DNA of 64,000 nucleotides from an uncultured Desulfobacterales bacterium (GTDB lineage Bacteria; Desulfobacterota; Desulfobacteria; Desulfobacterales; JAHEIW01). The notes beneath the pieces were generated by a model. That model was not told the origin of the DNA. It was given only the letters and a program-made list of their open reading frames with translations, and did no database searches. The stretch spans positions 44,505 through 108,504 of the forward strand of contig CAMYLV010000016.1 in NCBI GenBank assembly GCA_947259495.1. Direction: 5' to 3'. A program made the translations under genes and the position numbers. Below, piece after piece: positions 3,854-22,660 of the stretch. Within the stretch, counting starts at the first letter, position 1. Each line of letters starts with the position of its first letter.

Positions 3854-5065
3854 ATGCAAAAGACCGTACTGATCATTTCAACCCTGGACACCAAGGGACT
3901 GGAAACCGATTATCTGATGGAAAAATTGAAGGGACTGGGTCTCAACACGCTCCTGATGGATATCTCCATGCGCGGCGATGCGCCATCCAGCGCAGACATC
4001 CCACCCGATCGAGTTGCCGCAGCCGGCGGCAGCAATTTTGAAGAAATCCGCAACTCACGCAACCGCTCACAGATCACCAATATTACAATGGCAGGCGCCT
4101 CTCGTATTGCAGCTGATCTGCTTTCTGAAAACAAACTCGACGGATTGATCGCAATGGGCGGCTCGACCGGCACGCTAATGGCCACCGAAGTGATGCGGTC
4201 CCTGCCCTTTGGCATACCCAAAGTAATGATTTCTTCTACGGCAGCACTGCCGGGACTTGCCACCCGCTACATCGGTACCGGCGATATCGCCCTTTTCCAT
4301 TCAGTAATTGAAATTTCGGGGATCACCGATTTGCTCAAAAATGTCATGGATCGTGCAGCTGAAGCCCTGGCCGGGATGGTGCTGGGTACGATCACCTCGC
4401 CCAAAGCCCAAAAAGGTAAAGCAATTGCATTGACCATGCTGGGCCCCTGTGAAAAATGTGCCAGCGCCGTTCGTTCCGGTCTTGAAAACAAGGGCTTTCA
4501 GGTCATTGGTTTTTCGGCTGCCGGTATCGGTGACCGGGCCATGGAAGATATGGTTGCTGATGGTTTCTTTCAGGGCGTCGTTGATCTAGCCCCGGGTGGC
4601 GTCGGCGAACATCTGTACGGATTTATGCGGGATGCCGGACCCCATCGTCTGGAAACAGCCGGCAAGGCCGGTATCCCCCAGATCATTTCAACCTGCAGTG
4701 TCAATCACATGACGCCGGCCAAGTCTAAATACAAGCCGGACTATCATAAGCGCCGCAAGTATGATCTGGATAAATTCAGAACCTGGATTCGTTTATCCAG
4801 CGATGAACTCAAGGAGGTCGCCGGGGCTTTCGCCGCTAAACTCAATAATGCGTCCGGTCCGGTCAGTGTCATCATACCGCAAAAGGGATGGTCCTCTGTG
4901 GACAGCCCGGAAAATCCAACTTACGACCCTGAAGAAGATCAGGTATTTGTCGAAACGCTTCGCGAACAGCTGAATTCCGATGTCAGAATAATTGAAATCC
5001 CGGCCAATATGGAAGATGAAACCTTTGCGCAGGCGGTTGTCATGGCTGCATTGGAGATCTTTTAA
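3854..5065 (+). CDS. UPF0261 / Tm-1-like ATP-binding protein
   Basis: The N-terminus MQKTVLIISTLDTKGLETDYL and the roughly 400-aa length match the UPF0261 family pattern as I remember it. Confidence 0.7.
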   Translation: MQKTVLIISTLDTKGLETDYLMEKLKGLGLNTLLMDISMRGDAPSSADIPPDRVAAAGGSNFEEIRNSRNRSQITNITMAGASRIAADLLSENKLDGLIAMGGSTGTLMATEVMRSLPFGIPKVMISSTAALPGLATRYIGTGDIALFHSVIEISGITDLLKNVMDRAAEALAGMVLGTITSPKAQKGKAIALTMLGPCEKCASAVRSGLENKGFQVIGFSAAGIGDRAMEDMVADGFFQGVVDLAPGGVGEHLYGFMRDAGPHRLETAGKAGIPQIISTCSVNHMTPAKSKYKPDYHKRRKYDLDKFRTWIRLSSDELKEVAGAFAAKLNNASGPVSVIIPQKGWSSVDSPENPTYDPEEDQVFVETLREQLNSDVRIIEIPANMEDETFAQAVVMAALEIF

Positions 5066-10029: not shown

Positions 10030-11565
10030 CTAGCTTTTTTTATTTAAGCGTTTTATTTCATTCTGCCAGTACTTCATAATATTAGACCCCATAGAGCCAG
10101 CAGCAGTATTAATTTCTGATTTGATATTCTCCTCCATGTTGAGAGGGGTAAATTTAACAGTACCTGTTGCCGGCGAAGCGACAGTTTGTCCTGAGGCCAT
10201 GTCAAATGCCCTGACGGAATAGGCCACCGTTGTGAGCTCCTGGATCCGCCCATAGTATTTTAGCTTCATAGCTCCAGCACGACGTATTTTCGCCAAGAGC
10301 AATATATTCGCCTTATGTTTCGGAACAAATTGTTTGATAGTATACCAAGTCATTGGCAAATCGCCATATTGCGCTTTTTCCATAAGTACGGGTATTTCAG
10401 CAATAGAAATTACTCTCAAACCGCTATCAATCAAACATGTTTCAAGGTGGGCATGAAAAATCGGAATCACGTTTTCATCCCCCGAGACCACCACCAGTGC
10501 GGTAGGAACTTTTGGTAATACCGGGACTACCTGTTTTTTCGTTTGATCGGTATGCGCTTTCAATTGCTCAAGCTCCCCACGTTCATGCTCAATTCTGTCC
10601 GCCTCAGCAAATAAGTGTTTTTTCTCCGCTTCCGGTTCAGGCTCTGCTGTAATGTATTGACTGAATTGGACCGGACGCTTTAATACAAATACAAAATCCC
10701 CCTTGTCCAACTTTGGGTTGTTAATTTTTCCAAATTGGGGATGCTGGGCTTTGTGGGAATAATTGATTACTTTTTCCTGAAGGTATGAACCAAGTTCCTC
10801 TCCGGTGACATAGCCGTCCCGATTGAAATCGGCATAGCCATCCTTGATACCCTGGATAAAACAGATCTTAAACACCGATCGATCGGGCACTTGCTCGTTC
10901 TCTCTGCCTGCGGTAATAAACTCCCTGACCGGTGCGGCGATTTTTTCCTCGATATATTCTGTAGGCGCAGCCCGCACCATGGTAAAGATTGCACCAGAAA
11001 AACATGAATCAAAAACCATCAACACATGCTTGGCCCGGATACGTTTGGCTACGGTTTCAATTTGACGCATATCGATGGCGCGCCGCATAAAGTTTGTTTC
11101 ATCTTGAGTCGGGCGAGGGGCGTCCACCGGAACGATGTAGCCTAATTTTGTACCGTCGGCTTCTTCGAGTGTATGACCATGACCCGAGAACCAAAAAAGA
11201 ACACCCTTGTCTTTTACCTTGCCGGGGCCCGTTATCAGCTTATTCAATGCGTTATCCAAACGGTCCCAATCAGGGTCTTCAAGCAAGTCAACCTGCCAAC
11301 CCATCTCTTTGAGTGTGATGGCAATCTCGCGGGCATCATTTACTGGATTGGGTAGTCTGGGCCAACCGGCTCTGTAATCTGAGCAACCCACTATCAGTGC
11401 ATAATAACCAGAGTAAAGTGATATCTGCTGGGGAGAACCTGAATGGGTCTTGGCCTTAACGAAGATGCCTCTGGAAGTAGCATATATAGGAAGTGTAACG
11501 AACACAAAACTGATGACAATTAAAAATAGACAAGCACCCAGAACTCTTGTTTGACTGAAGATCAT
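10030..11565 (-). CDS. Caspase-like (peptidase C14) protein with N-terminal signal/anchor and uncharacterised C-terminal domain
   Basis: A catalytic His/Cys dyad context is present (FWFSGHGH and MVFDSCFSG). The N-terminus is hydrophobic. Confidence 0.8.
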   Translation of the reverse strand: MIFSQTRVLGACLFLIVISFVFVTLPIYATSRGIFVKAKTHSGSPQQISLYSGYYALIVGCSDYRAGWPRLPNPVNDAREIAITLKEMGWQVDLLEDPDWDRLDNALNKLITGPGKVKDKGVLFWFSGHGHTLEEADGTKLGYIVPVDAPRPTQDETNFMRRAIDMRQIETVAKRIRAKHVLMVFDSCFSGAIFTMVRAAPTEYIEEKIAAPVREFITAGRENEQVPDRSVFKICFIQGIKDGYADFNRDGYVTGEELGSYLQEKVINYSHKAQHPQFGKINNPKLDKGDFVFVLKRPVQFSQYITAEPEPEAEKKHLFAEADRIEHERGELEQLKAHTDQTKKQVVPVLPKVPTALVVVSGDENVIPIFHAHLETCLIDSGLRVISIAEIPVLMEKAQYGDLPMTWYTIKQFVPKHKANILLLAKIRRAGAMKLKYYGRIQELTTVAYSVRAFDMASGQTVASPATGTVKFTPLNMEENIKSEINTAAGSMGSNIMKYWQNEIKRLNKKS

Positions 11566-11864
11566 TTGTCCCCCTCTTTTATGTTATTATAGAAGAGTTT
11601 TGCCGAACTAAAAAATCTTAAAAGGACAAATTTGTCTTGATAACAATCTTATAGTCTATTAAACTGACAAGGTCAATTGAATCGTAAAAATAAACCTCAA
11701 AAGCTCGATTACCACACCTTGTGGCACAACTCGATATCATACTCGAATGTTGGCAAGCTATCTGCAACTACAACAAGTCCCTAATACCTGAATCTGAGCC
11801 GCTTATTTATTTGTCGATCAACTTCAATCGAGCTGACTATCATTTAAAATGAAAGGGGGAGATT

Positions 11865-12881
11865 ATGAAAAGGCGTAAATGTTGGGCTGCAATTGGATGT
11901 ATCGTAATGTTTTTTGTAGCGGGCCTGCTTTTTCATGGATGCAAAACGATTCAGCCTAAGCCCGAAGCGAAAGTCACTGAAGCGGGGGGACCTTCTATTG
12001 AAGAAGCCCAGAGTGCAGCCTACGGCGGCCCTATGGCAAGAATTGCCGTATCGCGATTCACTGACAAGACCGGAAAAGGTTGGTGGAGCCGTGATGTCGG
12101 CGATGGTATGGCTGACATGTTGGCCACGGCGCTTTTCCACACCAACCGCTACATTGTGCTGGAGCGGCAGCAACTGCGAGATGTTCTCCGGGAGCAGGAT
12201 CTGGGGGCATCCGGAAGAGTCAAACAGCAAACGGCCGCACCTATCGGCGAAATTGAGGGAGCAGAGCTTTTGATCACTGGCGCTGTGACCGAGTTTGAAG
12301 GTGCCGCTTCCGGTACCAAGGGCGGTTTAGGCGGCTGGGGAAGCGGAGTGGTTGGAGCTGTTTTAGGGGCTTATAAAAAATCGCACATGGCGATTGACGT
12401 GCGTGTCATCGATACAAAGACCTCCCGAATTGTAGCTGTTACCTCTGTAGAAGGATCTGCAACGGACATCGGTGGCTTGGGGGCTTTAGGAGGCGCTGTC
12501 GGTGGTGGAGCCTTAGGGGGTGCTTTGGGTGGTTGGTCAAAGACCCCAACCGAGAAAGCGTTGCGAATCTGTATAAAAAATTCGGTTGATTTTATTGTCA
12601 GTAAAACACCTGCCCAATACTACCATTTTGGCTCTGGTGGAACGGCAGTTCAACCTACATCAGCAACGCCGGCATCGACTGCTCCTCAGTCACAGGAGCC
12701 GTCTGTTCAGGTGACAGGTTCTTCGGTAAACATTCGTTCCGGACCGGGAACAAGTCACGATATAATCGGCAGTGTGAGGCGCGGAGATCGCCTGGTTCTC
12801 CTGGGCGAAAGCGGAAATTGGTTTCAGGTGCGCCTGCCCAATGGAAAAGTAGGATATATTATCAATAAGCTTTGTAAATAA
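11865..12881 (+). CDS. CsgG-like lipoprotein with C-terminal bacterial SH3 domain
   Basis: Lipobox LLFHGC. CsgG-like IAVSRFTDKTG...LERQQLRDVLREQDL...LLITGAVTEFE. Gly-rich loop. SH3b-like VNIRSGPGTSHDIIGSV...GNWFQV. Confidence 0.7.
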   Translation: MKRRKCWAAIGCIVMFFVAGLLFHGCKTIQPKPEAKVTEAGGPSIEEAQSAAYGGPMARIAVSRFTDKTGKGWWSRDVGDGMADMLATALFHTNRYIVLERQQLRDVLREQDLGASGRVKQQTAAPIGEIEGAELLITGAVTEFEGAASGTKGGLGGWGSGVVGAVLGAYKKSHMAIDVRVIDTKTSRIVAVTSVEGSATDIGGLGALGGAVGGGALGGALGGWSKTPTEKALRICIKNSVDFIVSKTPAQYYHFGSGGTAVQPTSATPASTAPQSQEPSVQVTGSSVNIRSGPGTSHDIIGSVRRGDRLVLLGESGNWFQVRLPNGKVGYIINKLCK

Positions 12882-12976
12882 GCCCTCGAGCTAGCTTTGT
12901 TGTTTTGCCTATCGCGTTTTTCCATCTTGTGTCAAACAGGGAGCCCGAACAATGCGGCTAAGTTGTGATTTAATTT

Positions 12977-13024
12977 AAATATCACAGATATTTTCAGAAT
13001 TGATATTTACGACATTGTTGGAGT
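12977..13024 (+). repeat. Island repeat family, partial copy C7
   Basis: AAATATCACAGATATTTTCAGAATTGATATTTACGACATTGTTGGAGTT aligns to the right half of C1, including the GTTGGAG box. Confidence 0.45.
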
Positions 13025-13043
13025 TATCTGTAGACCAGCGGTG

Positions 13044-13075
13044 AATAAAAAGGCAGAGCCAATATTGACTCTGCC
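13044..13075 (-). terminator. Rho-independent terminator candidate downstream of 13116..13595
   Basis: On the minus strand: GGCAGAG-N10-CTCTGCC followed by TTTTTATT. Confidence 0.55.
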
Positions 13076-13115
13076 CCAAAAATCTATAATGACCGACCTC
13101 CTATATATTTTTAAT

Positions 13116-13595
13116 TTATTCAGATTTAGGCAATTCAAATGTCCCTTTTATTATAATGCAATTTTGAAAAGTTCCCGGAGCGATAGATTTGCCACGCTGG
13201 AGCATACTCCATGTACCACCGCCTTTAATGTTCTCCCATTTGCCGGTACCCAATAAAAATTTCCATTCACCACCATTACCATTACCATCCCATCTTACAA
13301 CATTTATATCCCCATTAAGATACATGTATTTACAATACCCGCTCTGCTTTATTTCATCACCTGTTCTTTCGAATATACCCGCACCTATTTCGGAGACATT
13401 GTGAAGCATTTCCGAATTCGTATTGCTTCGAAGCATTCCTTTTAGTTCAAGACCTATAATCATCAATTCTTTGCTATTGTGAACCATAGTGGCTGTCCCT
13501 GATCTACAGGCCATTGATTCGAAAGGGTCTGAAGCCTGAACGGCTGGGATGAAAACGAAAATAGCGAGAAGTGTAATTAAAAATGATCGAATCAT
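13116..13595 (-). CDS. Secreted hypothetical protein
   Basis: Signal peptide MIRSFLITLLAIFVFIPAVQA. AAAGGAGG lies upstream of the ATG. Confidence 0.6.
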   Translation of the reverse strand: MIRSFLITLLAIFVFIPAVQASDPFESMACRSGTATMVHNSKELMIIGLELKGMLRSNTNSEMLHNVSEIGAGIFERTGDEIKQSGYCKYMYLNGDINVVRWDGNGNGGEWKFLLGTGKWENIKGGGTWSMLQRGKSIAPGTFQNCIIIKGTFELPKSE

Positions 13596-13698
13596 AGAGC
13601 GCCTCCTTTCATTTGATTATCAAAAATGTTTTTCTTCAAAAGGCTATTCAGAATCCCAACAGGATTGACAACCTCTTGTTGGGAGAAGGGTTGGCAAA

Positions 13699-13779
13699 AT
13701 TTGAGTGGTTTCTCCATTGAATCTTTACCTGATTGTTAGGTTAAAGTTTAAGGGAAACCAGTTTCTATTTCAGCAGGAA
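13699..13779 (-). promoter_or_regulatory. Conserved leader motif, copy U1 (candidate cis-regulatory RNA or operator region)
   Basis: About 88% identical by eye to 17547-17626. It lies 104-184 nt upstream of the 13595 start. Nested stems: GGTTTC/GAAACC and CTTTAACCT/AGGTAAAG. Confidence 0.5.
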
Positions 13780-13963
13780 AAGTATTTAGAAGTTGAGAAT
13801 CGATTCGACGATGAGTAGGAGTAGCCGATAAGAATTTATTAGAACTAACAACACGTGTGAGATTGAGCTTCAGATGAGTTCAATATTAAAGTTCAAATAT
13901 TATGGACACCATGTAATGTCAATAAAATTCAAGTAAATATATTGAGAATACATGGGTTTTGCC

Positions 13964-14031
13964 GAAATTTCAGATACCATTTGAGTATCACAGGTTTTTT
14001 TGGATTTCAAATGTTTGAATACGTTGGAGAT
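13964..14031 (+). repeat. Island repeat family, copy C3
   Basis: CAGATACCATTTGAGTATCACAGG...CGTTGGAGAT has the same box order as C1/C2. It lies directly 3' of the S41 gene. Confidence 0.55.
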
Positions 14032-14041
14032 ATTCCAAATT

Positions 14042-15037
14042 TTAATCTGAATCATTCCGATTTATAATATCCTCTTGAATCAAGTTCTTGATTCTTTCCA
14101 TTTCAACATCTTTACCAAGTCGATAATCATCTATTGTTCGAGATACCAGAATATCCGGTATTACTCCTCGATCTGGATTTTCACCTGGCAGTGTGTAAAT
14201 AGCTAAAGGAATAGAACCTTTTAATCTACTGTTTGAGAGCTTTGCCGTTACTGGGTCGCTATTAAAGCTTATTCTACCGGCAGTTTCTCTCCCAATTACT
14301 AACCCAAATTCATTGGCCTTGAAAACTGCTGCGAAAACCACCCCAGCAGAAAATGTTTTTTCAGAAATTAGAAGAAATACTTTCCCTTTAAATTTATTCG
14401 ACGCCTCATAAGGCACTCTCATTCTATGATTAACAGCTTCTATGTAGTCACCATTCTTTGCATTAGCTAAATGATTGCCAGCTTTTCCAGCATAGATACT
14501 GTTACGCATTATTTCACTAACTTTAAACTCGAATAGTTTTGCAATTTGGTATTCTGAAGGTGTTAAATTATCAAGAAGATAGAATCCCCAATAACCACTC
14601 CCGCCGCGATTTTCCCTAATGTCAATAACCAAATAAGAAGACTCAGCATATTTATTGAAAAATGAGTCTATAAATTGTTTATAGCTCTCAGCTTTTCCAT
14701 AACTGAAACCTGGCATTTTTAGGACTGGAATTTCTTCATCTTGGATAAAAAACGAATATTTACTGTATTTGTTGTCATGCTGAGTTACAGTTTTGTTAAA
14801 CTCTTTTAAAGTAACAGATTTGAGTTCTGTGATCCTAACTTTTGAGTCGAGTTTATATTTAACCTTCCAAGGCGGTGTGACTTTCAAATACTTAAGAAGC
14901 AGTATATGAAAATAGTCCTCAAAAAAAGACCATTTAACATGATCTAAAGAGGTATGAAATAATTGAGAGCACTCTTTAAACAGTGAAGTGAACCCATCCG
15001 ATTGCACAAAAATTAGTTGAGTGTTAAGAGGGGTCAC
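14042..15037 (-). CDS. S41-family (tail-specific-like) serine peptidase
   Basis: LVIDIRENRGGSG and ISEKTFSAGVVFA (Ser nucleophile context), plus GRETAG. The start is uncertain (GTG) and no signal peptide is evident. Confidence 0.75.
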   Translation of the reverse strand: MTPLNTQLIFVQSDGFTSLFKECSQLFHTSLDHVKWSFFEDYFHILLLKYLKVTPPWKVKYKLDSKVRITELKSVTLKEFNKTVTQHDNKYSKYSFFIQDEEIPVLKMPGFSYGKAESYKQFIDSFFNKYAESSYLVIDIRENRGGSGYWGFYLLDNLTPSEYQIAKLFEFKVSEIMRNSIYAGKAGNHLANAKNGDYIEAVNHRMRVPYEASNKFKGKVFLLISEKTFSAGVVFAAVFKANEFGLVIGRETAGRISFNSDPVTAKLSNSRLKGSIPLAIYTLPGENPDRGVIPDILVSRTIDDYRLGKDVEMERIKNLIQEDIINRNDSD

Positions 15038-15132
15038 ACTTTTTTAAAAAAAATCGAACAGATGCTGTGAATGACGCTTGAGGTTGAGAATTGCAAATTA
15101 TTTGACTGAAATCCAAATACGACAAAGGTACC

Positions 15133-15208
15133 GATACATTGAGAATACATGCATTTTGGCATTTTTACAGATACGAAATGGATGTCTGGATTTGTAAGCT
15201 CACTGGTA
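15133..15208 (+). repeat. Island repeat family, degenerate copy C6
   Basis: GATACATTGAGAATACATG...CAGATACGAAATGGATGTCTGG shares its left boxes with 13940-13990 and 9078-9145. Confidence 0.35.
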
Positions 15209-15569
15209 TCTGAATTGTTTGTAAAATCCAACAGAAAATATCGCATTAAATTTCAGCCATTACATAGGAGAATAGTACGATAATCAGTGCGCTTTTTCAA
15301 AATTTATTTTTAATATTAATAATTCTTTATATGAGCATCTCGGCCTGCGACAATTTTAAAAATGGGTGTCAATTCGCTTCTCCTGTCAGAATTTTTTTGG
15401 AGCTGTTGTGGATATTTCAATGGCAAGGAGTTTGAGCGTAAGAACAGGAAGGCGGGTCACTTTGATAACAAGATTTTCAATGCTTGCCATAGAAGCCATA
15501 CAATGAGGATTATAATCCAACAGATAATTGTTACGTGGAGTATTTTTAACATTCTGACTACTGAATTTC

Positions 15570-15803
15570 CTAACTGAATATAAGTTTATCTAATTGATGT
15601 TCTGAAATATGGGCAAGACGGCCAATCTCTTGTGCTTGCATAATAAGTTCAAAGGGAGGCTCCTTGCCCTTGTAGCGAAGTTTTGAAATTTTTAAGACTA
15701 AATTCAAATAATCACGTTTGAGTTTCATAAAATTTTTGTCGTCTGTTTCCATTTTGATTTTCTGCAAATTTAGGTGTTTTGGGTGACCCCCAAGCGAGGC
15801 CAC
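15570..15803 (-). CDS. Small helical hypothetical protein (start uncertain, possibly Met at 15752)
   Basis: Supported by the ORF only. No family was recognised. Confidence 0.3.
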   Translation of the reverse strand: MASLGGHPKHLNLQKIKMETDDKNFMKLKRDYLNLVLKISKLRYKGKEPPFELIMQAQEIGRLAHISEHQLDKLIFS

Positions 15804-15955
15804 TCACGGACAAAAGCCATGGGCATGGCGCTTATTGATCATGGTATGTCCATATAAAATATCGGGAATTTTTGGTTAGAACTTGAATTAGATTTGCCAA
15901 CGATCTGATCAACCGGGGCATTTAAAGGTATTGGGTATTGGGGGGATGTTATTGG

Positions 15956-16507
15956 GGGGTCGGGCCGCGCTAACAATTCGACATTATACGACATACATCA
16001 TAAAATCAAGCCGTTTAGGCCTTAGAAGCCCCATTTTAGGGGCAAAATCACCCTTCTAAGAAATAGTTTAATTGACTTCAAAAGTCATATGCGGTGGCTG
16101 CCGGCTTAGTCCAAAGATGAATTGAAGATAGCGCATCATTAATGGATTGAGGAGGAATTGAAAAAATCACAGCTGGTTCGCCAGAGCAAGGGGACGCAAA
16201 GCATTGCTGTTGGAGAAAAATCGTTTGTTGAACAAATCAAAAACCGTCTTGGTATTCGTTCTAAAGGTTGGAAGATTCTCGAAGATGAAGGTGACTACCA
16301 GTTATGTGACCGTCAGACCGGTTATTGCGACAGCGCCCAATTTATTAATTCAAATTCTTTTTATTGGGATTTAGACAATAAACCCGCAGACTTCCCTATT
16401 CCTTAAAGAGCCCATTTTACCCATAGAATGGCATTGCTAAGCCCAAAAATCGGTCCTTTTTTTAACTCTTTTTATTAATTATCAGACACTTACTGCGGCC
16501 CGACCCC
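15956..16507. mobile_element. Decayed small element bounded by perfect 13-bp inverted repeats around a COG1943 transposase remnant
   Basis: GGGGTCGGGCCGC (15956-15968) and GCGGCCCGACCCC (16495-16507). The outer flanks are word repeats (GGTATTGGGTATTGGGG and CATTTTG x4). Confidence 0.45.
16158..16406 (+). pseudogene. C-terminal remnant of an IS200-like/COG1943 (Y1, RAYT-type) transposase
   Basis: QSIAVGEKSFVEQIKNRLGIRSKGWKI...YQL...NSFYWD matches the conserved C-terminal tail of this family as I remember it. The catalytic N-terminal part is absent. Confidence 0.55.
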
Positions 16508-16552
16508 ATTTTGCACCATTTTGCATTTTGCATTTTGCTATAGTTGAAATGA

Positions 16553-16849
16553 TTACCAGAGGCCTACAGCATAAATATTGAACTCTGTTTTGGTTCGAAG
16601 ATGCTTCTTGATATTTTCATAAAGTTCGATACGACGTGGGTCCCCAGTCCAGTGCTGCCAGCGCTCTAAAGATGTCCACCTGCTTATTACCAAACATTCC
16701 TCCGGGCGATCTAAGTGAAAAAATGTTTCGCCTGAAATATAACCTGGTTGTCTGACTGCAAGAGCTCTTAATTCTATGATGTGAGGCAAGAGTATCTTCG
16801 CATTGACCCCGTTCTTTGTTACATGCTTTATTAAAACTCCAATCGCCAT
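16553..16849 (-). CDS. Antibiotic-biosynthesis-monooxygenase (ABM) fold protein
   Basis: The protein is 98 aa. PGYISGETF...VISRWTSLERWQHW is typical of the ABM domain. GGAGG lies before the ATG. Confidence 0.65.
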   Translation of the reverse strand: MAIGVLIKHVTKNGVNAKILLPHIIELRALAVRQPGYISGETFFHLDRPEECLVISRWTSLERWQHWTGDPRRIELYENIKKHLRTKTEFNIYAVGLW

Positions 16850-16954
16850 GTCCCCCTCCCCTCTTTAGTTTATATTTGATACTAAAGGAAATTTAATTTT
16901 TGAGGTATGGATGAAATTCATTGAGTCAGATGTGAAACTGATACACACAACTTA

Positions 16955-17401
16955 TCACATATTGAAGATAGATGATAAACAGCAGACCCTACAAACATGT
17001 GTCTTCGCGAAGGAAAAGGGCAAACTCTGACTTTTGATGTATTCAACTGCCCCACTCAACTCCTCCAACCACCGACTGAGACTATAACCAATACCATGCA
17101 GGTAAGCACTAATGCCAGCAGACTGGAGAGCTGCATAAGAAGCTTCCTGGATTTGGTCATCGTCTATTCCACTGAGCCGTTACTGCTCAGTATGGAAGGG
17201 CGTTCAGTACTGACAACGGCCAGCAGCTGCAGCTCCAAAAGCGACTAATGCTTTATCACGTGCAGGCAGCTTGCTGTCGCTAAGGAACCATGCAGTAAGT
17301 CGCCACTGGTGTTCGAGCTGCGAATCCGGCAGTCCATCAAGCCAGCCCGGCACTCCGCCTAGTGTCTGAGAAATTTGAGCAAGGATTTCTTGTCTCGTCA
17401 T
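16955..17401 (-). pseudogene. AhpD/carboxymuconolactone-decarboxylase-family gene with in-frame TGA at the CxxC position (candidate Sec) and an in-frame TAA 8 codons later
   Basis: MTRQEILAQ... (ATG 17401 after AAGGAG). ...AAAAGRCQY-TGA(17204-17206)-TPFHTEQ-TAA(17180-17182)-RLSGIDDDQIQEASYAALQSAGISAYLHG. The family pattern C-x-Y-C-x3-H...G.t.eEi.EA continues in frame through both stops. Confidence 0.5.
17171..17191 (-). promoter_or_regulatory. SECIS-like hairpin 12 nt downstream of the in-frame UGA
   Basis: RNA ACUGAGC-AGUAACG-GCUCAGU: 7-bp stem, 7-nt loop with G at loop position 2. The loop G is about 24 nt from the UGA. Confidence 0.35.
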
Positions 17402-17546
17402 TGGATTTTTCTCCTTTTGTGGATAGGGTGCGATTCGCATCAATGGTTTACAATAAATAGCACCAAAACAGGTCAGGTTTGCTGACTTAAACGAGTGGAT
17501 TACACTCCTAACAGAAAAAAATTTTTTTAGGAGCCGGGTAGGCACA

Positions 17547-17626
17547 TTTTGAGAGGTTTCTCCATTGAAGCTTTACCTTATTGGTAGGTTAAAGTTTACA
17601 GGAAACCAGAATCTATTGCAGTGGAA
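17547..17626 (-). promoter_or_regulatory. Conserved leader motif, copy U2
   Basis: Lies 146-225 nt upstream of the AhpD-like ATG. See 13699-13779. Confidence 0.5.
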
Positions 17627-17888
17627 TGTGTCGCTTAGAGTGAGAGGATAAATTCATGATGAAAGCTAATTTCAGGGCAAAATGAAAAAGCGCTGTTTTC
17701 CTGTTGCCACATTGTGGTATTTTTGTCAAGCTAATTTTGGATCATTGTAGGTCAGGTCTTAAATCGAGAGGATTATGAATTATCATTGAACTGGCATTGA
17801 AAATGATGTTGATGAGAAGGGTGAAGAGGAATTTTATTTTCTTTGAATAAGTTCGTTTTTATTTTTCCAGTTATTTTAACTTGAATTG

Positions 17889-19538
17889 TTAATTCTGCAT
17901 TTTAATGATCACCGAGGTTATGTCATCTTCTATTCTTGACTCACTTATAAATTTATCCAAGATGTCAAAAATTGCATCCAATATTTGTGTTGCGTCTGAA
18001 GATGAGTTTTGTCGAATTGCAGATAGGATTGGCTCTTTGCCTAACATCTCTCCATTTTTATTGCGCGCCTCCCAGATTCCATCTGTACTGAGAAAAACGA
18101 TTTGACCATTTGAAAAATCGGTTTCTTTATTATCCTCGTAGACCCATTCGGCATCCAAACCAAGAGCTATTCCCGATCCTCCAAGTTCACTGAATGAATC
18201 TGAGCCAGGATCATAAACAATGGCGGGATCATGTCCCGCCCGCACCCAATCAAGGCGTTTGGATTCTGTATCAAGAGTTAAAAAAAACATTGTCATAAAT
18301 TGCCCGGAATCTTCAACATCTTTAACCAACTGACGGTTCACATCAGAAATGATATTGGCCGTGCTGCCCGGTAAAAATACCCGCTGCCGCAATGAAGAAC
18401 GAACAGTGGCCATAAGTAATGCAGAAGAAATACCATGCCCTGAGACATCGCCAATCGCAACCCCAATTTTCTGCTCATCATTATCTTCAATAGATATAAA
18501 ATCATAATAATCACCACCGGTTTCATCGCAGTAAACGCTTTTTCCGGCTATATCGATCCCGTTAACCTTTATATTACTTTTTGGAAGAAGATTTTGTTGA
18601 ACCTCCTTTGCTAAATTAAGAGACTGCTGCATTCTTTCACGTTCCTTCAGACCCGCGGTCATTTCATTGATCACATCACCCGTATACCCAATTTCATCAT
18701 TAGAGGTAACTTGCACTTTTTTGTCAAAGCGGCCGTTTCTTACCCCCCGCAGGGTAATGATGATCTCCTTGAAGGGTATCGTCAGATTTCTGCCTACCAG
18801 CATCGTCAAACATATGCCAAAACCGATAAATATGAATGTATTAGTGAATATAACAGGCCTTAGCTGCTGTATTGCCAATGCCGGGTCCGAGTATTTTAGG
18901 GAGATTCTATGAAAAAGATGCAAAATTGTTAAGAGGGGAATCAGATTGCAAGCAAAAAGCATTGCAACCAGCCGGGTGCGGATCCGGATGCGCAGGGTCT
19001 TCGGGATGGCAGTAAGTCCACCTTCCGGGAAAAAATGCGGTGCCAGTCGCTTTTGTGAAATATGCTCCAACAAAAAAAAAGCAACAATCACGGTGATAGA
19101 GCCAGTGCTCAGGCTTAATAACAACGCGCGTTGCATCAAATCCGATCCTAAACCAAGGCTCCAGTAAATAGCCGTCCAAATTATAGCCGCCAACATCCAC
19201 ATACTCAAATCCAGGGCCATGAGAAAAAAGGGTTCGTTGAGCACTTTTTGGCGGGCCCTGTTCTCCAGTTCCGCCGACACTTCTGAGCGTTTGAATTTGG
19301 CATTTAGATATAACCGAATGGGTCTTTCATATAGCAGAGTCATCACCACGACAAATAAAAAGGCCAATGGCGTAAAAATTGTATCCATCACATCGACAGC
19401 AGTAAATTTCCATATATCTGCAGGCAACGGTTCCGCCCTGAACATCAGCTTATGAACAAATACAACGGAAAATAAATTGGCAAATGCATTCGCAAAAATC
19501 ATTTCGTTTTTTAGGTGGAAAAGTTTAAATTTTGTCAT
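17889..19538 (-). CDS. Membrane-bound PP2C/SpoIIE-family phosphatase with HAMP linker
   Basis: Multiple N-terminal TM segments. HAMP-like IPFKEIIITLRGVRNGRFDKKV. PP2C motifs GGDYYDF, GDVSGHG and DGIWEA. Confidence 0.85.
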   Translation of the reverse strand: MTKFKLFHLKNEMIFANAFANLFSVVFVHKLMFRAEPLPADIWKFTAVDVMDTIFTPLAFLFVVVMTLLYERPIRLYLNAKFKRSEVSAELENRARQKVLNEPFFLMALDLSMWMLAAIIWTAIYWSLGLGSDLMQRALLLSLSTGSITVIVAFFLLEHISQKRLAPHFFPEGGLTAIPKTLRIRIRTRLVAMLFACNLIPLLTILHLFHRISLKYSDPALAIQQLRPVIFTNTFIFIGFGICLTMLVGRNLTIPFKEIIITLRGVRNGRFDKKVQVTSNDEIGYTGDVINEMTAGLKERERMQQSLNLAKEVQQNLLPKSNIKVNGIDIAGKSVYCDETGGDYYDFISIEDNDEQKIGVAIGDVSGHGISSALLMATVRSSLRQRVFLPGSTANIISDVNRQLVKDVEDSGQFMTMFFLTLDTESKRLDWVRAGHDPAIVYDPGSDSFSELGGSGIALGLDAEWVYEDNKETDFSNGQIVFLSTDGIWEARNKNGEMLGKEPILSAIRQNSSSDATQILDAIFDILDKFISESRIEDDITSVIIKMQN

Positions 19539-19583
19539 GATACTGCTCTCCTACAAGCTGATAATTGAATACCAGCATGGAAC

Positions 19584-19654
19584 GAAATTATTGCAGATAT
19601 CAAATGTATATCACAAGAATTTTAGCGCCCTGATAGTTGTACTTTGTTGGAGGT
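19584..19654 (+). repeat. Island repeat family, copy C2
   Basis: Matches C1 (9111-9181) at 66 of 71 positions. It fills most of the 144-bp spacer between two minus-strand genes. Confidence 0.75.
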
Positions 19655-19682
19655 GTCTGCATTTCAATTATATGATGACTGG

Positions 19683-21143
19683 CTATTGGGGAAGTTGGTT
19701 CCCATACCATTTCCAATGTCCGTTATCTTTAATTAGCTTACTGCCGGTCATAAAGAGGGCTTCAAAATATTTATCTTTAAGCCAAACATCAATTTTAGCC
19801 TCATCGCCTTCAGGCTCAAACTTGGTGATGATAATTTTAGCCTCAGAAGTATAAGATAAAGTTCCTTCTAAAAATTTTAAAGCCATTTGTTTGGTAACGC
19901 CATAATGAAGAAATCGATCCGAAATTAAATCGGCCATTGTCACCACATCTTTATTAAATCTAGCTTGATTATAATCTGTTATGAATGCTTTTACATCAGT
20001 GGGCAATTCCACGGCTTTTAGTGGTTTTTTCGGTGGTCTTTTCCTTTGAACAGAGACTGCAACTAAATCAAATAAAGGACTATAATGAATTGAAGTTGGG
20101 GGATGAGGCTGGGCTGTTTTCGATGTTACAGCAATAACAAGGTCAAGTTCCGGAACGACCACTATAAATTGCCCCCGCCTTCCCCAAGCCCTGAAACTGC
20201 TGCAGCCATCGACTTTCTTCACCCACCATTGATACCCGTATCCAAACGAACCATATATTGGCGAGCTGAAAGTCTTTATCTGTTGATCGGTGGATTCTTT
20301 CACCCAATATTCAGAGACAATAGATTGACCGTTCCAATATCCATTATTCAAGTACAGGAAACCGATTTTTGCTAAATCTCGTGCTGAGAGGCCCAAACCG
20401 AAACCGCCAATGTAGTATCCTTGTGGGTCTTGATGCCAATAGGCTGATTGTATCCCTAACGGTTCAAAAAGGTTTCTCTTTGCAAAATCCAAGGTGCTGG
20501 ATTTAGTCGACTTGGACAGAATTATGGACAGAAGATGTGATGTTGATGAATTGTAATTAAATACATCCCCCGGATTTTTTTCCTGCGGAAGTTGAATCGT
20601 GAATTTTGCCCAGTTCGAGGAAGTATACCAGAACCGCATTACAGGTCCCCGATCGTTCCACCTAAAACCTGCACTCATTGTCAAAAGGTGTCTAAGACTG
20701 ATCTTCTTTTTCCTCGGATCAAGGTCCTCTGTGATATATTCAGGAAAAAATTCGGTTAGTTTTTGATCCACGCTTTTAAGATAACCTTTGTCCAGTGCTA
20801 TACCAATTAGGGCTGAGGTAACACTTTTGGTAACTGAATGAACGACAGCGTATTTTTCAGGGCTTCCCCAAGAGTAGTATTTCTCAAAAACTAAATAGCC
20901 GTTCTTAACAACCAACAAACTGAAAGCATCGGGAAGTCTATTTTGGACAAATTCGTCCGCTATCCTTAGCTTAGCAGAATCCATACCCTGAATCTCCGGG
21001 GTAGAAGTCCTCCAACCGCTGGTAGGCCAGTATTCGCGCTTTTTTGGTTGTTCGCAAAATGCATATTCAGTCAAGAAGGCAAAAAGGGAGAAAGTAAGAA
21101 TACAAAATGTTTTTTTACTATAACTCAAATTAAATATTTTCAT
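19683..21143 (-). CDS. Beta-lactamase-fold serine hydrolase with C-terminal extra domain
   Basis: SxxK motif HSVTKSV. N-terminal signal-like segment. The ATG at 21143 follows AAAGGAGA. Confidence 0.8.
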   Translation of the reverse strand: MKIFNLSYSKKTFCILTFSLFAFLTEYAFCEQPKKREYWPTSGWRTSTPEIQGMDSAKLRIADEFVQNRLPDAFSLLVVKNGYLVFEKYYSWGSPEKYAVVHSVTKSVTSALIGIALDKGYLKSVDQKLTEFFPEYITEDLDPRKKKISLRHLLTMSAGFRWNDRGPVMRFWYTSSNWAKFTIQLPQEKNPGDVFNYNSSTSHLLSIILSKSTKSSTLDFAKRNLFEPLGIQSAYWHQDPQGYYIGGFGLGLSARDLAKIGFLYLNNGYWNGQSIVSEYWVKESTDQQIKTFSSPIYGSFGYGYQWWVKKVDGCSSFRAWGRRGQFIVVVPELDLVIAVTSKTAQPHPPTSIHYSPLFDLVAVSVQRKRPPKKPLKAVELPTDVKAFITDYNQARFNKDVVTMADLISDRFLHYGVTKQMALKFLEGTLSYTSEAKIIITKFEPEGDEAKIDVWLKDKYFEALFMTGSKLIKDNGHWKWYGNQLPQ

Positions 21144-21637: not shown

Positions 21638-22660
21638 TTAGGCTGTCATATTGACTATTGTCCGACCCTTGTGTTTGCCTTGTAACATACGGTCGATGGC
21701 CTGATCCAGATCGACCAGGGTAATTTCTTCCACGACCGTTTCCATCATTGGGATTTTCCATTCATCGGCGAGTTTCTCCCAAGTCTTGAGCCGGTTCGGC
21801 ATCGGGCAATTCTGGGAATCGATACCCACGAGGCTGACCCCACGCAGGATGAAGGGATATACATTGATCGGCAACTCAGGTGATGCCACATTACCGCGGT
21901 GGCCAGGATATCTCCTCCTACCGTGTCGATGCTGCCTGCCCAGCGAGACTTGTGAAGCGGACGACCACTTTGATCTGTGGCCTCTTCGATGCTGATAATA
22001 CGCTGTGCGCCGATTTCTTTTAGATATTCCGACTCATCTACCAAACCATTGACGGCAACGACCGTGTAACCCAATTTTGACAAAATTGCCACGGCAATGC
22101 TGCCAACGCCGCCGCTGGCGCCTGATACCAGCACCTCACCATGTTCCGGCAAAATGCTCCCATGAACGGTCAGTTGAAAGACTGACAGGGCCGCCGTAAA
22201 CCCGGCCGTTCCATAGCACATGGCCTCTCTTGACGTCAGTCCCTTGGGCAGGGGAACCACCCATTGGCCGGGTACCCGAATATATTGGCCAAACCCCCCT
22301 GCCGTGTTCATGCCTAAATCATAACTGGTGAACCCGAATATATTGGCCAAACCCCCCTGCCGTGTTCATGCCTAAATCATAACTGGTGACGATAACATCA
22401 TCTCTGGGTTTAAGGGCGATATCAGTGCTTTCCACCACCACACCTGCTGCGTCGATGCCGGGTGTATGGGGATAGCTGCGTGTTACGCCTTTATTGCCGC
22501 TGGCTGATAACGCATCTTTGTAATTCAAAGATGAATAGTGCACCTCGACCACAACGTCTCCCGGGGGAAGGTCGTCTATGGTTTTGTTGAGGATCTGACG
22601 CGTGTATTTTTTGTCGTTAGTTTCTTCTACTACCAAGGCCTTAAATAATTCATCTGTCAT
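21638..22660 (-). pseudogene. YhdH/AcuI-type NADPH:quinone (acrylyl-CoA) oxidoreductase, disrupted twice
   Basis: Three collinear ORF pieces (22319..22672, 21745..22350, 21638..21889). SYDLGMNTAGGFGQYIRV is encoded twice. The first break is a 58-bp duplication. The second break, near 21890, removes part of the conserved region before PFILRGV. Confidence 0.8.
22274..22389. repeat. Perfect 58-bp tandem duplication inside the oxidoreductase pseudogene
   Basis: 22274-22331 and 22332-22389 are identical when read base by base. 58 is not a multiple of 3, so the duplication shifts the frame. Confidence 0.9.

Follow-up and report, generated by a model that had tools for sequence, protein, structure and literature searches.

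Does an in-frame TGA codon in a small gene of an uncultured Desulfobacterales bacterium specify selenocysteine (Sec), and does that gene still yield a selenoprotein? The gene encodes an AhpD-like protein with a CMD domain and lies at positions 16955 to 17401, on the minus strand, of a 64-kb stretch of contig CAMYLV010000016.1 (the window). The original prediction, made from the letters alone, had noted a TGA at the second Cys of the signature C-x-x-C-x3-H, followed by a hairpin resembling a selenocysteine insertion sequence (SECIS) and by an in-frame TAA. It had offered three explanations, namely, recent inactivation of a selenoprotein gene, a sequencing error at the TAA, and a doubly mutated pseudogene. 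Comparison with homologs, including an intact form of the gene in a sister contig (L026), indicates that the locus is in all likelihood a recently inactivated allele of a genuine CxxU AhpD-like selenoprotein gene, i.e., a young pseudogene.

A TGA codon in the active-site motif

The ATG of the gene occupies 17401-17399 on the minus strand, and its frame ends at 16955-16957. The window translation begins with MTRQ...AAAAGRCQY-TGA-TPFHTEQ-TAA-RLSGIDDDQIQEAS..., and the frame from the ATG at 17401 runs MTRQEILAQISQTLGGVPGWLDGLPDSQLEHQWRLTAWFLSDSKLPARDKALVAFGAAAAGRCQY-TGA-TPFHTEQ-TAA-RLSGIDDDQIQEASYAALQSAGISAYLHGIGYSLSRWLEELSGAVEYIKSQS... Codons 1 to 65 are followed by the UGA as codon 66 and by the TAA as codon 74, and family sequence extends to codon 126. 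About 70 family-like codons had been noted past the TAA; the frame does continue for about 75 codons, but only 53 of them are family sequence. With the TGA translated as Cys and the TAA as Gln, the window protein scores 43.9 bits against the Pfam CMD model (PF02627; cutoff, 23). With the TAA translated as Leu instead, it scores 38.3 against the NCBIfam model ahpD_dom (TIGR00778; cutoff, 27.8). Both scores exceed their cutoffs, in agreement with the family assignment made at the outset. No subfamily-specific NCBIfam model matches the window protein, which is recognized by the generic ahpD_dom only.

Three codons of the minus strand define the motif. The first Cys (C63) is encoded by TGT at 17213-17215 and aligns with Cys130 of Mycobacterium tuberculosis AhpD. 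The UGA, at 17204-17206, occupies the second position of C-Q-Y-U, where homologs also have TGA. The His of C-x-x-U-x3-H (H70), encoded by CAT at 17192-17194, is invariant in the family alignment and corresponds to His137 of the M. tuberculosis protein. The TGA is therefore located at the second Cys of C-x-x-C-x3-H in a gene of the CMD/AhpD domain family, exactly where it had been placed.

Among 5.8 billion proteins searched, 29 relatives were identified, which fall into four groups. Some stop exactly at C(Q/P/E)Y (P0015, P0016, P0019, P0020, P0025, P0026, P0028, and P0029), others have Trp at the Sec position (P0001-P0004, P0011, P0018, and P0022), two have Leu, and the remainder are distant Cys homologs with the sequence CKYCIPFH. 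The truncated and the Trp-containing groups both arise because the DNA has TGA at that codon, which gene callers mishandled. Thus, two metagenome contigs (L001 and L002) have TGA at this codon and a frame that goes on to ...SQSG or ...SQSR, for a protein of about 127 residues. The Trp entries are an artefact of gene calling in the style of code 4, with TGA read as Trp. In the entries cut at the UGA, upstream noncoding DNA was translated as a false N terminus.

When one genome per GTDB species was scanned, 19 loci were identified, 17 bacterial and 2 archaeal. The homologous codon is TGA in 17 of 17 bacterial loci, which belong to at least six phyla, as it is in L001, L002, and L026. The frame behind the TGA is conserved in all of the bacterial loci except a degenerate one (L020). 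The lineages with TGA include a Desulfosarcina metagenome-assembled genome (MAG) with three copies, a Desulfobacterales bacterium, Dehalococcoidales, other Chloroflexi including Anaerolineae, Armatimonadetes, Rubrobacteraceae, another member of the Actinomycetota, Desulfonatronovibrio, Desulfohalobiaceae, and Nitrospirae. The two archaeal loci carry TGC and TGT at the Sec codon. Altogether, such Cys codons were found at this position in two archaeal and three bacterial relatives (L021, L022, L024, L147, and L148), and U66 stands opposite Cys in proteins P0006, P0007, P0009, P0010, P0012-14, and P0017. For L026 compared with four relatives at measurable distance, the ratio of nonsynonymous to synonymous substitution rates (dN/dS) is 0.05 to 0.13 downstream of the UGA and 0.06 to 0.09 upstream. 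The low downstream values argue that the part after the UGA is maintained as protein. On these comparisons, the TGA of this AhpD-like family is a predicted selenocysteine codon and not a mutation.

The three copies of the Desulfosarcina MAG (L004, L007, and L011) are 91 to 94% identical to the window protein. Some other homologs depart from the pattern. In a soil metagenome contig (L003), TTA (Leu) replaces the TGA at 4196-4198 of the plus strand, with the SECIS hairpin kept; near-identical relatives of this sequence (P0025, 19 member sequences) stop at the Sec position. The TTA may be a Sec-to-Leu variant or an error. Protein P0008, seen as a protein sequence alone, likewise has Leu at this position. 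One locus (L015) contains an extra in-frame TAA at codon 36, and L020 has an extra in-frame TGA at codon 33 and a frameshifted 3′ end. Such extra stops or disrupted 3′ halves in other MAG copies suggest that decay or assembly error recurs across several lineages.

AhpD-like CxxU proteins had been described in the original prediction as an established bacterial selenoprotein family, and the literature agrees (PMC1088965, PMC2398784, PMC1976440). The Sargasso Sea survey reported 27 AhpD-like sequences and a separate CxxU class of “CMD domain-containing protein” (Zhang et al. 2005, PMC1088965). The Global Ocean Sampling (GOS) survey distinguished “AhpD-like 1” (COG2128) from “AhpD-like 2” (pfam02627) (Zhang & Gladyshev 2008, PMC2398784), and Geobacter has yielded a “distant AhpD homolog” (COG0599) (Zhang et al. 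2006, PMC1794560; PMC9312934). The delta-1 symbiont of Olavius, which is related to Desulfosarcina, has five AhpD-like selenoprotein genes (PMC1976440), in agreement with the three copies of the Desulfosarcina MAG. The window gene has in common with this group the CMD/AhpD domain, a CxxU motif with Sec in the place of its second Cys, a hairpin within the gene that has a G in its apical loop, the existence of Cys-containing homologs, and abundance in Deltaproteobacteria. We liken it to the AhpD-like CxxU group as a whole and not to one published subclass. In contrast to the known members, the window copy is dead, with a TAA in the SECIS loop and the native stop lost. AhpD-like CxxU selenoproteins are thus known already, and what is new here is one dead member.

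The hairpin downstream of the UGA

The bacterial SECIS hairpin predicted for this gene extends over 17167-17197 of the minus strand and is characterized by frozen synonymous sites, compensatory pairs, and a conserved loop start. Its upper stem of 7 bp, formed by ACUGAGC (17191-17185) and GCUCAGU (17177-17171), starts 12 nucleotides (nt) past the UGA. This is the stem-loop that had been proposed, and it is prolonged by a lower stem of UUCC (17197-17194) with GGAA (17170-17167) that starts 6 nt past the UGA. The apical loop at 17184-17178 reads AGUAACG in the window and AGUUACG in intact alleles. With a loop that is small, starts 19 nt past the UGA, and has a G and then a U near its 5′ side, on top of a bulged bipartite stem, the hairpin falls within what we take to be the numerical limits of bSECISearch.

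Compared with dinucleotide shuffles of a 76-nt stretch, the fold of the window sequence is unremarkable (z = -0.41). The case for a SECIS element therefore rests on comparative evidence. We recoded the 42 nt after the UGA synonymously, 1,000 times per sequence. Only 0.3% of the recodings of the window peptide were equally stable as the natural sequence. Of the 17 Sec forms, 16 have a natural fold better than at least 95% of the recodings, as against none of the six Cys forms, for which the fractions were between 0.10 and 0.92.

A codon alignment of 16 genes was used to check synonymous sites. Codons +5 to +11 after the UGA are almost without synonymous variation, while comparable codons elsewhere in the gene vary freely. 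Thus, Thr is encoded by ACT in 10 of 13 cases, Glu by GAG in 10 of 10, Gln by CAG in 16 of 16, and Arg by CGG in 10 of 10. Leu is encoded by TTA or TTG only at +8 and by CTC or CTG only at +10.

Two subfamilies build the stem at the same place from different sequences, ACUGAGC-AGUURCG-GCUCAGY in the TEQLRLS subfamily and (U/A)C(G/A)GCGC-AGUUK-GCGCUGA in the xAQ[LF]ALN subfamily. As the 3′ arm is offset by 2 nt between them, ungapped column-wise covariation is unusable, and the stem pairs were counted by a script that corrects the register. Six of the seven positions of the upper stem are paired in 16 to 17 of 17 sequences, and three stem positions show two-sided changes between the subfamilies (A-U to U-A, U-A to A-U or G-U, and A-U to C-G). 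The apical loop starts with AGUU in 17 of 17 Sec forms. In the alignment of homologs, orthologs carry both the TGA and the hairpin, and Cys forms have TGC or TGT. By these comparisons, the hairpin is a conserved SECIS candidate specific to Sec forms. Together, the conservation of the TGA, the dN/dS values, and a Sec-specific hairpin with compensating changes refute the proposal of a doubly mutated pseudogene in which the TGA is itself a mutation.

Probable loss of the gene in the window, and its predicted product

The sister contig (L026; GCA_947259895.1, CAMYNY010000061.1) is 9.3 kb long and 99.6 to 99.9% identical to window positions 11425-20700. The proteins encoded by a 549-residue neighbor gene and by the 98-residue gene downstream are identical in the two sequences. 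On the sister contig the AhpD-like gene is intact, with the TGA, then TTA, and then ...KSQSG-TAA. In the window, the frame past the UGA is closed early by the in-frame TAA at 17180-17182 (minus strand), whose presence inside the hairpin loop we confirmed, and the native stop is deleted. The TAA results from a T-to-A change at 17181, where the sister contig has T (TTA, Leu), and all homologs have TTA, TTG, or TTT at this codon. This change, eight codons past the UGA, also replaces the invariant U of the SECIS loop, its fourth base. Truncation at the TAA removes the family-invariant residues G78, A87, G96, L101, G103, Y106, E114, and L115.

A second lesion, absent from the original prediction, is a window-specific deletion of 35 nt with its junction at 17023-17025 (minus strand). 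The missing segment, at 17024, held GGG as the final codon and TAA as the native stop. Its loss causes a run-on of 22 codons into the former 3′ untranslated region, which at 16955-17022 is now in frame (LPFSFAKTHVCRVCCLSSIFNM plus a stop) and is not family sequence, as homologs end with ...SQSG or ...SQSR. The 35-nt loss is derived in the window lineage, because L011 and L001 also keep the segment, as does the sister contig. The 16 other differences between the window and the sister contig look like ordinary strain polymorphism and lie mostly in noncoding DNA. The suggestion of a recently inactivated selenoprotein gene is thus supported by the conserved TGA, purifying selection, the Sec-specific hairpin, and an intact sister sequence with 99.6 to 99.9% identity.

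In intact alleles, the UGA at codon 66 would be read as Sec, the SECIS hairpin recruiting SelB with Sec-tRNA while the ribosome is at the UGA. The predicted product is an AhpD-like thiol/selenol oxidoreductase of about 127 residues with the CMD fold and the putative active site C63-x-Y-U66-x3-H70. It would presumably shuttle reducing equivalents to a partner of the peroxiredoxin (Prx) type, with a Sec66-Cys63 selenenylsulfide as the oxidized state. In the window, a single T-to-A change would both create the TAA from the Leu codon TTA and alter the U of the SECIS loop, and the 35-nt deletion takes the native stop; no more than a fragment of 73 residues, devoid of the C-terminal helices, would be expected as product.

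In M. tuberculosis AhpD (PDB 1KNC, 1GU9), Cys130, Cys133, and His137 correspond to C63, U66, and H70. By analogy, the dithiol/disulfide exchange of that enzyme would likely become a selenol/thiol exchange in the window family. The mycobacterial protein differs in being a trimer of 177-residue subunits with a duplicated fold, whereas members of the window family have 127 residues, with Ala in place of Glu118 and Tyr in place of His132. Tyr also occupies the His132-equivalent position in Pseudomonas aeruginosa PA0269 (PMC3141380). The best match by sequence to a solved structure is the conserved protein O27018 of Methanothermobacter (PDB 3BEY; E = 6.5e-6). Its short chain with a single CMD domain and CxxC-x3-H is like that of the window protein, but it is an archaeal Cys form. 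The TGA had been said to replace the resolving or redox-active Cys. It does lie at the second Cys of the motif, but Koshkin and colleagues are said to have described in 2003 the aligned Cys133 as the attacking nucleophile, not the resolving residue. Sec would then be found where a stronger nucleophile pays off.

No gene for a partner Prx is present in the window, L001, or L004. In L002 the AhpD-like gene is followed directly by a gene for a Sec-containing Prx-like protein. This gene (L002, 1214-1768, plus strand; AhpC-TSA/Redoxin) has its own active-site TGA (...FYIFAFGGA-U-TNHV...), so that two selenoprotein genes, AhpD-like and Prx-like, adjoin. The arrangement echoes a Prx-like/AhpD-like 2 gene pair on one ocean-metagenome read (PMC2398784).

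Can the TGA and the lesions be explained otherwise than by the recent loss of a genuine selenoprotein gene? Taken alone, the window does not distinguish a Sec codon from a stop, and the TGA might be simply a nonsense mutation of an AhpD-like gene of the Cys type that never encoded Sec, with the hairpin as a by-product of its codons. The fold is indeed not unusual against dinucleotide shuffles, and GCN-CAG-NNN-GCN strings of Cys forms can give weak hairpins unaided. This explanation deserves next to no credence in view of the TGA in all 17 homologs from bacterial genomes of several phyla, of the frames conserved downstream (except in L020) with dN/dS of 0.05 to 0.13, and of a hairpin that is significant against synonymous recoding in Sec forms only and shows compensatory changes. 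A less radical alternative is that the gene is intact in the organism and the full-length selenoprotein is made, the TAA and the 35-nt gap being sequencing or assembly errors or a minority variant. The near-identical sister assembly differs at exactly these two sites, and another gene of the window has a 58-nt tandem duplication that may also be an assembly artefact. However, two independent lesions of different kinds affect one 450-bp gene, a T-to-A change and a 35-nt deletion without flanking repeats are untypical of assembly error, and the 16 remaining differences between the assemblies have the appearance of strain polymorphism. Because the two lesions in this small gene are of different types, we favor real decay, and an intact gene appears unlikely. 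Far more improbable still is an allele that functions in an altered way, by read-through of the UAA or as a redox-active Sec fragment of 73 residues. The promoter-leader region and the N-terminal 65 codons match the sister strain except at one synonymous site, which gives no direct support to such a hypothesis. Moreover, truncation drops the family-invariant residues from G78 through L115, and no homolog has a stop at the TAA site. Sec insertion itself is probably impaired, because the same mutation alters an invariant base of the SECIS loop.

Several results weigh against the reading of the locus as a young selenoprotein pseudogene. That both lesions are real is our inference, and they could be assembly errors. 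Neither tRNA-Sec nor any other tRNA was found in the 64-kb window, and Rfam gave no match over the whole window at gathering thresholds. The window yielded no second selenoprotein candidate among frames split by a TGA into parts of at least 40 codons each, and no Prx gene was found near the AhpD-like gene in it. As regards function, the window protein scores 20.2 bits with the model for true AhpD (TIGR00777; cutoff, 191.95), and Glu118 of the AhpD proton relay stands opposite Ala51. Since Glu118 is not kept and the TIGR00777 score is far below the cutoff, an AhpC-reducing role is analogy only; by sequence, the window protein is AhpD-like and not an ortholog of AhpD. No sel genes were present among the 20 window open reading frames (ORFs) scanned with Pfam, and the TGA-split frames that were found in the window proved to be adjoining genes in the same frame or noise, with no CxxU or UxxC context.

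The upstream leader and neighboring genes

The AhpD-like gene is preceded by a 5′ leader module at 17484-17615 (minus strand) that comprises a mini-ORF and a hairpin. The mini-ORF, MEKPLKMCLPGS, starts with the ATG at 17565 and stops at 17529-17527, and the hairpin covers this stop at about 17533-17505, both on the minus strand. A second copy of the leader is present in the window at 13632-13767 (minus strand), before an unrelated 159-residue ORF. Leaders also precede the AhpD-like genes of L001, L002, L004, L005, and L007. The distance from the leader core down to the start is usually about 170 nt but amounts to 615 nt in L007, which suggests an insertion between leader and gene.

The module of about 110 to 130 nt has three parts, namely, a hairpin that would sequester a Shine-Dalgarno-like sequence, a conserved 12-codon mini-ORF (MEKPLKxCLPxS), and a strongly covarying hairpin over its stop. 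The leader core, ATGSAGRAACCNCTCAAANNKTGCC, recurs without mismatch at least 120 times in metagenome contigs (L027-L146), mostly from sediments. Among the matches listed, to which the following counts refer, the leader shares its strand with the longest ORF that closely follows it in 99 of 109 cases. Genes upstream of it are oriented either way, and start codons are mostly found 110 to 250 nt past the leader core. The downstream proteins, 90 sequences in 55 clusters, represent at least 55 unrelated families. Inspected by eye, without domain searches, they include secreted, GYD-like, rhodanese-like, GAF, MBL-fold, SnoaL-like, cyclic nucleotide monophosphate (cNMP)-binding, and Sec-Prx proteins. 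In two contigs (L052 and L144), the leader is followed by Prx ORFs similar to that of L002, closed by a TGA after 72 residues.

MEKPLKxCLPxS can be read in 75 of 115 leader copies. Many copies, again by eye, have a strong Shine-Dalgarno sequence able to pair with an upstream CCUCC. Pairing in the hairpin over the mini-ORF stop reaches 93.8% across 60 copies, and nine of its ten pairs show two-sided changes. The two 5′ helices are weaker (65 to 71% paired), and one arm of the first was fixed by the search pattern. The stop codon of the mini-ORF is TGA in 55, TAA in 45, and TAG in 15 of the 115 copies. We considered this TGA as a Sec codon followed by a SECIS-like hairpin and rejected the idea, as TAA and TAG freely replace it. 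With Rfam, positions 17380-17720 gave only a chance small nucleolar RNA match of 12 bits at E values up to 10, and a literature search with the peptide string “MEKPLK” found no paper. Tentatively, the module may represent an undescribed class of portable cis-regulatory leader of Desulfobacterales-like bacteria, based on an upstream ORF or on structure, and not a mere repeat. The leader leaves our verdict on the selenoprotein gene unchanged.

Directly downstream of the AhpD-like gene is an intact 98-residue ORF (16553-16849, minus strand), which is its syntenic partner in L026, L001, and L004. No paralogs of the AhpD-like gene were found elsewhere in the window. The following 1.5 kb or so (15040-16550) contain no ORF of more than 82 residues and differ from the sister assembly by indels of 6, 1, and 3 nt. 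In L001 a PALP gene is found at this position; a search for its remnants at 15.0-16.5 kb of the window detected none, and the view of this gap as a decayed gene is therefore unsupported. At about 21700-22660 (minus strand), a gene resembling zinc dehydrogenases of the YhdH type is broken by a perfect 58-nt tandem duplication. The two repeat units, 22389-22332 and 22331-22274, encode the peptide TSYDLGMNTAGGFGQYIRV twice, and a second frame change occurs near the 3′ end. This gene is either another recent pseudogene or an assembly artefact.

The stakes of the selenoprotein finding are modest, in that a reading of raw sequence can recognize a bacterial selenoprotein gene. Public protein catalogues misrepresent the AhpD-like Sec family, as fragments that end at CxY or with Trp at the UGA. 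In all probability, the window has caught a selenoprotein gene during its loss, with one base change that both introduces a stop and hits the SECIS loop, and with a near-identical strain in which the gene is still intact. Such pairs of broken and intact alleles offer natural controls to work on SECIS function and on the gain and loss of selenoproteins. The leader is maybe the more interesting lead, as it could explain how many unrelated genes are wired to a common control in one bacterial lineage.

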